Origin: a virus
Length of the DNA: 31,516 nucleotides
Strand: one strand, 5' to 3'
IMG/VR virus record: IMGVR_UViG_3300020724_000020
The notes below the pieces were generated by a model. That model was not told the DNA's origin. It saw only the letters and a list, made by a program, of their open reading frames with translations, and searched no databases. Of this stretch, positions 8,147-8,554 are shown one piece after another. The translations under genes and the position numbers were made by a program. How positions within the stretch are numbered: the stretch's first letter is position 1; each line of letters starts with the position of its first letter.

Positions 8147-8554
8147 ATGAAATATATTAAAACGATTTATCAAAAAGTTTATGAAAAATTATCATATGAT
8201 GAAACAAATCCATTACTAATACAACTATATGAAAAAATAATTGAAATTACAAATGAATTTGAATTTGAAATAAAAAAAGAAACAAGTGACGAATATGCCG
8301 CCATTGTTTTTACAAATTCAAAATACAAATTAAGCACATTAATAACAGATAATAGAAATTTCAAATCATTCGTAATGAACGATGATGCAAAAACATATAG
8401 TGACCAAATGAAAGACCTTGTAACATTTATGAAAACGATTTTACCAATCCATAATGGTGAAGATTTTTATTTTAAATACACAGAAACCTTTAACTTTATA
8501 AATAAACTAAATGACTTTGAACTATGGAGAGATACTCTAAAATATAATCTATAA
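8147..8554 (+). CDS. Fam-A member (MKYIKTIYQK ... RDTLKYNL)
   Basis: ORF track. Confidence 0.65.
   Translation: MKYIKTIYQKVYEKLSYDETNPLLIQLYEKIIEITNEFEFEIKKETSDEYAAIVFTNSKYKLSTLITDNRNFKSFVMNDDAKTYSDQMKDLVTFMKTILPIHNGEDFYFKYTETFNFINKLNDFELWRDTLKYNL

Follow-up and report, generated by a model that had tools for sequence, protein, structure and literature searches.

A portable N-terminal head related to the T4 capsid-targeting sequence, and a C-terminal KYNL tail, in a large family of small proteins of a T4-like huge phage

The closest described counterpart of the proteins reported here is the capsid-targeting sequence (CTS) of bacteriophage T4, MKTYQEFIAE, which has an [IL]-A-E site at its end. 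Targeting by this peptide depends on residues 4 and 7 and its processing on residues 8 and 10, and the change E10D blocks cutting but not packaging (PMC9026906). The T4 prohead protease follows the rule L/I-x-E (PMC9026906), the corresponding specificity being S/A-x-E in phiKZ and A-x-E in SPN3US, and all characterised proteases of the gp21 family cut after Glu. T4 Alt carries propeptides at both termini (PMC9026906), and the SPN3US paralogues gp53 and gp54, at 34% identity, have identical N-terminal 15-mers that are thought to act as targeting sequences. Here, we analysed a stretch of viral DNA of 31,516 nucleotides (IMG/VR record IMGVR_UViG_3300020724_000020, the whole of which is called the window) that encodes many members of a family of small proteins, named Fam-A, with a conserved N-terminal head, MK[YH][IL]K-x-[FY]-E, and a conserved C-terminal tail, K-Y-N-L.

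Fam-A proteins share with the T4 internal proteins a short N-terminal peptide that starts with MK, contains aromatic residues and Glu, and is attached to small unrelated proteins. Likewise, they are encoded in a plastic, cassette-exchanging region, and the internal-protein locus of T4 is plastic as well. The likeness extends to the gp20 portal, the gp21-type protease and the scaffold core of T4, and to sibling proteins in Fam-A contigs that bear near-copies of the CTS; the two-ended propeptides of Alt and the shared 15-mers of SPN3US are also similar. However, Fam-A lacks the L/I-x-E end of the CTS, and internal proteins are few per T4 genome, whereas Fam-A reaches tens of copies per array. 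The head propeptides of phiKZ, 201phi2-1 and SPN3US differ from Fam-A in their A/S/G-x-E or L/I-x-E ends, in their length, often more than 100 residues, in the demonstration of their cleavage by mass spectrometry and in their small family sizes.

Conserved ends and exchangeable cargos of Fam-A

Fam-A is a very large, massively expanded and unannotated family of two-tag proteins of about 100 aa. The window has a G + C content of about 26% and is packed with small + strand open reading frames (ORFs). The strict head pattern MK[YHF][ILM]K-x-[FY]-E was found 12 times on the + strand of the window and 0 times on the - strand, and it was not found in any of 200 Markov-1 simulated windows. Starts of the head type MK[YH][IL]K-x-[FY]-E were present in 22 + strand ORFs, which were called from the first ATG, a TTG start being possible for some members. 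By inspection, Glu stood exactly at head position 8 in 17 of these 22 heads, a count that takes in a 30-aa ORF at 25572, and in the remaining heads small insertions or extensions at the N-terminus place Glu at 9, 11 or 13. The first-pass annotation of this DNA had called Glu8 near-invariant, and this holds for the family as a whole: the residue was present in 87 of 94 members from related viral contigs (Phe/Tyr7 in 92 of 94) and in 227 of 241 metagenomic homologues (aromatic residue at 7 in 235 of 241). Glu was also retained, at position 8 or 9, in the head subtypes MKI[KR][KR]FNE and MIT.FK[IL][FY]E and, likewise, in the subtype MKN[IL]K.FE. The positions chosen to exemplify it, 8147-8180, encode MKYIKTIYQKV, with Tyr8 and the first Glu at 13, and belong to one of the few exceptions. 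The head pattern is real and far beyond chance; the earlier account of it was incomplete and anchored on an atypical ORF.

That account described the head and overlooked the tail. The consensus ..[DN]-A-x-K-Y-N-L-stop ends nearly every intact member, together with the head. In-frame K-Y-N-[LM]-stop tails numbered 25 on the + strand and 0 on the - strand, where the simulation gave an expectation of 0.33. Many neighbouring genes are joined by an ATGA stop/start overlap, and the tail and the next head then form a junction of about 45 nt; in 64 of 94 members, the stop is a TGA that overlaps the next ATG. In the MKI[KR][KR]FNE subfamily, the sharing of the tail is limited to the last five residues.

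Among the 94 members from related contigs, Ile4 was encoded by ATT in 35 cases and by ATA in 28, Tyr by TAT/TAC in a ratio of 81/13 and Asn by AAT/AAC in a ratio of 74/20. The final Leu was spelled TTA, CTA, CTG, CTT or TTG, with Ile or Met as alternatives. The codons of the conserved positions match the background usage of the same genes, and the substitutions are conservative (I/L, F/Y, L/I/M). Moreover, the head is retained by the first gene of an array and the tail by the last, at positions without a partner junction. The constraint therefore acts on the peptides. A trace at the RNA level was also seen, as codon -6 is almost always A-ending (GCA in 36 of 39 Ala).

The same two ends were found on an SH3/Tudor barrel, an ankyrin protein, helical mini-proteins, a 456-aa protein and the cargo-less 30-aa gene. 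These results showed that selection at the protein level maintains both ends and that both are portable from one cargo to another, unrelated one. Even with an alignment of 119 sequences that have a near-invariant head, the AlphaFold model gave residues 1-20 a pLDDT of about 53 and assigned them no secondary structure. The head is followed by a five-stranded SH3/Tudor-like small barrel, the fold of the commonest cargo, and by a confident C-terminal helix (83-98) that ends in the tail. A head buried as a beta-strand had been named beforehand as one of the observations that would speak against a cleavable tag, and the predicted structure leaves the head outside the fold. An AlphaFold2 model of the ankyrin member P0120, made without an alignment (pLDDT 60), gave no information on the ends.

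A profile built from 18 window members retrieved 188 proteins. Among the 120 matches listed, all were metagenomic, none had a functional name from any source and 119 had no Pfam domain; nearly all were 90-125 aa long and followed the pattern MKYIK.YE...AKKYNL. The profile search of 1.84 billion cluster representatives gave 3,939 clusters (defined at 50% identity) at E <= 1e-3 and 2,126 at E <= 1e-10. About 1 Mb of related contigs contained 142 unique head-plus-tail ORFs, and at least 47 consecutive Fam-A genes form one array in a 531-kb contig. The junction word was located in 31 viral-contig stretches with a G + C content of 21-28%, all with head or tail matches and most with several of each. 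A 17-nt tail/ATGA word was rejected for per-genome copy counts, as most of its hits were due to chance in contigs rich in AT (no more than one tail in 85 of the 111 new loci listed).

Pfam gave no credible match for the non-ankyrin Fam-A members tested, the ankyrin cassette alone matching Ank families. The 456-aa member, which was the only Fam-A protein scanned against PHROGs, had no credible match there or in Pfam. The search of the PDB with the family profile gave nothing significant (best E = 0.72). No match in the phage collection was obtained by megablast of 10 kb of the window or by tblastn of the typical member P0106 at E <= 1, in the latter case because the ends are too short and the cargo is too divergent. 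YorP of the Bacillus SPbeta prophage (PDB 2heq) and the SH3/Tudor/KOW barrels have 22% identity with no sequence-level relationship detected, and YorP is not known to bear terminal tags like those of Fam-A. Searches of the literature turned up neither the motif nor such arrays in huge phages.

Comparison with the T4 capsid-targeting sequence

In one related contig, L005, two Fam-A genes lie inside a head-gene cluster with a T4 gp20-type portal (Portal_T4, 3.7e-63) and a partial gp21-type prohead protease (Peptidase_S77 30.8 bits and S80 30.2 bits, both above the cut-off). The portal search gave 52 loci, several of which are on Fam-A-bearing contigs (L058 with L022, L076 with L017 and L086 with L026). 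At L086, the portal is followed first by an acidic protein of 150 aa, then by a protease-scaffold fusion of 790 aa and finally by a gp23-like capsid protein of 615 aa, the identity of the last being 49-57% to 635-735-kb huge phages, 34% to LR756500, 28-29% to Prevotella Lak phages and 26% to Tenacibaculum jumbo phages. Moreover, the protein of the window that resembles the Major Vault Protein (MVP) and Band-7 proteins shares 47-51% identity with genes of uncultured huge phages of 462 kb and 735 kb (LR756500, LR756501, LR756503). Judged by these comparisons, the hosts of Fam-A are low-GC huge T4-like phages, kin of the 460-735-kb uncultured huge phages and of the Lak phages. The MVP-like protein itself (18515-19801, +, 428 aa) matches the MVP shoulder (7.9e-28) and a Vault_3 repeat, with weak matches to Band-7/SPFH, and would be a shell protein of vault or SPFH type that huge phages conserve. 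A conserved Fam-A gene beside the portal was considered and rejected, as its occurrence there is sporadic. As for the protease that the first-pass annotation had asked for, a gp21-type enzyme was found in the family-bearing relatives and no prohead-type protease within the window, and the C1 peptidase that it had pointed to (3951-4715) has no link to the family beyond proximity.

The capsid-protein N-termini of 13 lineages, aligned with a T4 sequence, have [LIMV]-x-E-N as a common motif near residue 45. In the L086 fusion, the scaffold part contains more than 10 repeats of Y-[ST]-E-Y-[IL]-A-E-[NH]-[LV]-D at a spacing of exactly 14 residues. From these two sources, the expected sites of this protease lineage are probably [LIMV]-x-E. 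Each of the 14-residue repeats (YSEY[IL]AENLD.., L086 12320-14692, +) ends in [IL]-A-E, as if built for cutting into 14-mers, and a protease-scaffold fusion with looser repeats of this kind is present in LR756500 (226725-228623, -).

Near-copies of the T4 CTS occur as leaders in the related contigs, one example being MRKMRTYQEFIKES (vs T4 MKTYQEFIAE). About 1 Mb of these contigs shows a 12-fold enrichment, at N-termini, of the T4-type motif [FY]-x-x-[FY]-[ILVM]-x-E, as in MRKMRTYQEFIKES, MKKLKTFESFLNEN and MKILKKYQEFLNEN, and three of the 23 proteins with a T4-type leader also carry a KYNL-type tail. Fam-A has only its first eight residues in common with the longer leaders of the same phages, whose canonical site is located about five residues beyond Glu8; in the alignment, Glu8 corresponds to T4 Gln5 and not to the cleaved Glu10. 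The least conserved position of the head is 6, the would-be P3, which is T, K, L, R or Q (T 43, K 38 and L 14 among 142 members; T 101, K 38 and L 37 among 241 homologues). Canonical [LIMV]-x-E within residues 4-16 was present in 37 of 142 members (26%), compared with 29 of 142 (20%) in a control stretch. The aromatic residues of Fam-A are Tyr/His3 and Phe/Tyr7, with Leu/Ile/Val at 10 in 134 of 241 homologues, a spacing unlike that of T4, and a few window heads have Phe/Tyr7 plus Phe/Tyr10.

Because the P3 position is the most variable one, Fam-A appears to be without the [LI]-x-E processing half. The proposal that the heads follow the grammar of the T4 CTS is thus borne out for the first half, an N-terminal peptide (within the ~10-20 residues of a CTS) common to unrelated proteins, and fails for the second, as the leader does not end in an L/I-x-E processing site. 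The gp21-family protease and the scaffold core that accompany a CTS are found in L005 and L086, outside the window. The most economical reading is that the head would be a targeting-competent, processing-poor leader. The members with Leu or Met at position 6, nine of them in the window, could still be cut.

A second pairing of head and tail was found in another lineage, that of the huge phage LR756500. A scan of the whole genome showed that about 25 of 591 ORFs start with MK[YF]I.EYEEF[IL].E, in which the Fam-A half (MKYIK.YE) is joined to the canonical half (EF[IL].E). Among the proteins tagged in this way are leucine-rich repeat (LRR) proteins, a DUF2201 metallopeptidase/VWA protein, an ATP-grasp enzyme and a PNK-type phosphatase, and nine of the tagged proteins have a different common tail, NADDFG.. 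(NADDFG[FLM][FL]DN-stop). As only about 4% of the LR756500 ORFs carry the head, it is a specific tag on a minority of proteins and no feature of start sites in general; the idea that the head is a generic optimum for the start of translation was therefore rejected. The NADDFG tail with an MKYIKEYEEF head was seen at L032 27009-30485 and at 11.7-17 kb and 313-318 kb of LR756500.

Packaging and the alternative explanations

There is good support for a portable N-terminal tag, related to the T4 CTS, in a T4-like huge phage, and the head is probably a targeting or docking tag. More tentatively, and with less than even confidence, we read the Fam-A head as an uncleaved capsid-targeting tag that would dock the proteins into the prohead. 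A member would consist of the flexible 8-residue tag MK[YH][IL]K-x-[FY]-E, a short linker, an exchangeable cargo and a C-terminal helix with K-Y-N-L-COOH at its end; the usual cargo is an SH3/Tudor-like barrel, and others are ankyrin, helical or far larger. The head may have descended from a T4-type capsid-targeting leader, with the targeting half kept and the [LI]-x-E processing half gone. Fam-A proteins would then dock on the prohead scaffold core, become enclosed and be delivered with the DNA, most members escaping trimming at a canonical site. In this reading, Glu8 would determine binding and would not be the scissile residue, and the KYNL tail may be a second docking or retention signal. 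In encapsulins and in P22, a short terminal peptide or helix suffices for docking inside an HK97-fold shell, and the encapsulin cargo-loading peptides and the C-terminal coat-binding helix of P22 scaffolding protein are a possible model for the tail, although they differ from Fam-A in having no sequence similarity and one tag instead of two. We consider it rather unlikely that MKYIKxFE and KYNL-COOH together form a two-ended label that loads mini-proteins of hypervariable sequence, tens to perhaps more than 100 per genome, into the very large capsid or another phage shell, from which they would be injected. The other shell could be one made by the vault/MVP-like protein of the window, and the injected binder library would be renewed continuously by cassette exchange at the tail-head junction.

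Several observations weigh against packaging. Fam-A proteins are mildly acidic (median pI 5.7, 25% basic), whereas T4 internal proteins are described as highly basic, and the KYNL tail is without a counterpart in them. The very high copy number, at least 47 in one array, strains the packaging of all members. Tyr3 and Phe7 of Fam-A are four residues apart, whereas Tyr4 and Phe7 of the T4 CTS are three apart. The window itself contains no head genes, and the link is made through family-bearing relatives. The window contains the T4 late-promoter word TATAAATA 16 times against an expectation of 14.4, so that the word is not enriched and is uninformative. Furthermore, the tagged enzymes of LR756500 (phosphatase, ATP-grasp) could equally work in the cytoplasm.

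The main rival, docking to another common partner, is possible but held to be doubtful. The tags would be short linear motifs for a non-capsid partner, and the cargos a diversified binder library for host takeover or counter-defence; candidate partners are a phage or host hub, an oligomerisation partner (head to tail), machinery for degradation or chaperoning, and a phage-built compartment other than the capsid. Consistent with this explanation are the termini, invariant and unstructured on hypervariable folds of binder type (SH3/Tudor, ankyrin, LRR), the acidic character of the proteins and the operon-like arrays with ATGA overlaps. The early-gene blocks of T4-like phages are similar to such arrays. 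The head and tail are also partly alike (K-Y-I-K and K-K-Y-N-L; in LR756500, E-E-F and D-D-F), an observation that could suit one two-site receptor. However, a non-capsid partner leaves unexplained why the first eight residues are common to leaders that end in a T4-type CTS, and why the KYNL tail is present on three proteins with canonical leaders.

It is improbable, in our view, that the head is a cleavable CTS that a gp21-type protease cuts after Glu8, so that the mature protein begins at residue 9, as the first-pass annotation had suggested. Besides the general preference of the gp21 family for Glu, the idea has in its favour that Glu alone is retained across all head subtypes, even where its neighbours are shifted. 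Asn is the commonest residue after Glu8 (40 of 142) and also follows [LIMV]-x-E in the capsid N-termini and the scaffold repeats. The nine window heads with Leu or Met at 6 (KLFE, KLYE, KMYE) are canonical sites, and L-Y-E-N is identical to the motif of the LR756500 capsid protein. Yet the variable P3, the near equality with the control stretch, the known specificities of the T4, phiKZ and SPN3US enzymes, the alignment of Glu8 with T4 Gln5 and the more distal site of the longer leaders all speak against a cut at this residue.

Explanations at the nucleic-acid level and purely structural ones are unlikely. The former, to which we give very little credence, holds that the sequence is conserved as a translation re-initiation region for coupled genes without a Shine-Dalgarno sequence, or as a recombination site homogenised by gene conversion. 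The tail-plus-head junction spans about the ribosome footprint of the downstream start, stop and start overlap in most members, codon -6 is biased, the head and tail consist almost wholly of AT-only codons, and junction repeats mediate cassette loss. However, the third positions are at background frequency and residue changes are conservative; heads at array starts and tails at array ends have no partner junction; the same amino-acid motifs recur across lineages whose portals are 45-50% identical; and the LR756500 head occurs with a different tail and spaced genes. That head and tail are structural elements of one ancestral domain, the slowest-evolving parts of fast-diverging paralogues, is scarcely credible: the tail does end a confidently predicted helix after the barrel that most members share, but the model gives the head no structure, unrelated cargos and the 30-aa gene carry both ends as well, and the MKI[KR][KR]FNE subfamily shares just the last five tail residues.

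Some further ideas were dropped by eye. These were -1 frameshifting at AAT-TTA-TGA into polyproteins (the heptamer differs from canonical slippery sites, and one third of the junctions are not overlaps), a C-terminal signal of peroxisomal or ER type (the gene organisation is prokaryotic) and, for lack of fit or test, Asn-directed head-to-tail cyclisation and a binding like that of clamp or SSB tails for the LR756500 tail.

The two terminal tags provide a common, testable handle on thousands of unannotated huge-phage proteins. If they direct encapsidation, they would show how very large heads are filled with a large, rapidly exchanging set of injected proteins, extend the principle of the T4 CTS to Lak-related uncultured huge phages and offer a short natural packaging tag for engineering. 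If they bind another partner, the family would still amount to a naturally occurring collection of small binders that use one docking system.

Array members, cassette exchange and neighbouring genes

The ankyrin cassette of the window is flanked by two 64-nt repeats (9359-9422 and 9851-9914) that are 100% identical and spaced by 492 nt. In the sibling contig L210, from another sample, the flanks are 100% identical, exactly these 492 bp are missing and one repeat copy is left. This precise absence, with a single repeat, indicates that cassettes are gained or lost through the junction. The junction of an abutting tail and head, which is often an ATGA overlap, was thereby shown to double as a recombination substrate, and the cassette shuffling through a shared head that had been predicted by analogy with the T4 internal-protein locus is confirmed. 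The junction-mediated polymorphism is a concrete mechanism for the turnover of the family. Tail-only remnants (KYNL-stop with no head-bearing ORF), a tail-less member at 1721 and the cargo-poor 30-aa gene in the window point to rapid turnover.

Mobile promoter-stem-loop cassettes (PeSLs) in hyperplastic regions of T4-type phages were reportedly described by Arbiol and colleagues in 2010. As in those regions, small ORFs are shuffled between short conserved boundaries, and the segment 9359-9914 is bounded by short repeats and polymorphic between close genomes. Unlike the intergenic regulatory boundary of PeSLs, that of Fam-A is coding (tail plus head) and selected as protein.

The members and junction elements of the window are as follows.

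1721-2068 (+): head-bearing member (MKYIKLFE) with the tail lost; P0005, 87% identical to its product, has 145 aa and ends in LKYNL
7092-7415 (+): first Fam-A gene of array 1; head MKYLKTFE, tail DANKYNL-stop; head kept with no upstream family gene
8147-8554 (+): atypical Fam-A gene; head MKYIKTIYQKVYE (Tyr8, first Glu at 13), tail TLKYNL-stop; orphan cargo, the protein having no homologue by phmmer among ~1,400 local ORFs and proteins
8557-8844 (+): Fam-A gene; head variant MKHITPFIIFE (Glu at 11), tail VNKYNL-stop
8846-9286 (+): Fam-A gene; head variant MKYLMKLNE (Glu at 9, L-N-E), tail AIKYNL-stop
9359-9422 (+): left 64-nt direct repeat; tail end, ATGA overlap and head (KKYNL-stop / MKYIKLYENENKWNKV)
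9374-9661 (+): ankyrin-repeat cassette with head (Pfam Ank_2, 3.3e-8), probably frameshifted; the matching tail (at 9855) is in another frame, 9645-9869, and P0120 is an intact ankyrin homologue with both head and tail
9851-9914 (+): right 64-nt tail-plus-head repeat, second perfect copy
9866-10234 (+): Fam-A gene; head MKYIKLYE, tail AAKYNL-stop
10231-10548 (+): Fam-A gene; head MKHIKLFE, tail AKKYNL-stop; ATGA overlap on both sides
10545-10850 (+): last gene of array 1 (P0001, from the second Met); head MKHLKMYE, tail ATKYNL-stop; SH3/Tudor-like barrel plus C-terminal helix
14311-14646, 14643-14873 and 14870-15106 (+): three overlapping Fam-A genes; heads MKHLIDYE, MKIRKFNE and MKIERFNE, all with KKYNL-stop
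15345-15773 (+): Fam-A gene; head MKFIKRYE, tail AEKYNL-stop
15798-17168 (+): gene of the 456-aa protein, a large unrelated cargo; head MKYIKTYE, tail SEKYNL-stop
17587-17601 (+): tail-only remnant from a six-frame motif scan; further ones start at 3783, 5267, 9363 and 24892
24302-26342 (+): array 3, with members at 24302-24592 (tail KYNM), 24913-25215, 25249-25575, 25572-25663, 25724-26017 and 26019-26342
25572-25663 (+): cargo-less 30-aa mini-member (MKYIKIYE...ASKYNL) with little beyond head and tail (MKYIKIYESNDTSYLKKNLEAKIIASKYNL), probably a deletion derivative
30838-31152 and 31149-31516 (partial) (+): two members at the window end; the first is MKHMKYVKRFE...AKKYNL, and in the second a TTG start codon would yield MKYIKTFE

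Array 2 (14311-17168) is flanked by two receiver domains that stand alone, at 13788-14222 (-) and 17208-17564 (+) (cREC_REC 6.6e-17, Response_reg 7.1e-9). At 2152-3754 (-), a serine-recombinase ORF (Resolvase, 2.1e-7) overlaps a 431-aa ORF without a Pfam or PHROG match, an arrangement that looks like an IS607-type element of a resolvase plus a TnpB-like protein. Two overlapping paralogues of 199 and 207 aa at 12225-13437 (-) start with MK.R.GFVSNSSSSSF, and the second alone matches phrog_7397 (function unassigned). A second small-protein family, apparently sharing a C-terminal ..[IL]RK[QE]KL.K.., is present at 508-831 (+) and 6721-7038 (-) of the window and at L034 261-638 (-). Further SH3-like ORFs with GD[IV]V.[IV]K.. 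were found at 812, 1345 and 5785, without the Fam-A head.

Outside the window, four KYNL-type tails were found in L107 (IMGVR_UViG_GVMAG-M-3300022752-33_000001), which bears a giant-virus-MAG label yet may be a misbinned huge-phage fragment. In L003, a 163-kb viral contig, ClpB/AAA+ genes split by intein and LAGLIDADG domains (3628-9749, -) adjoin Fam-A members.

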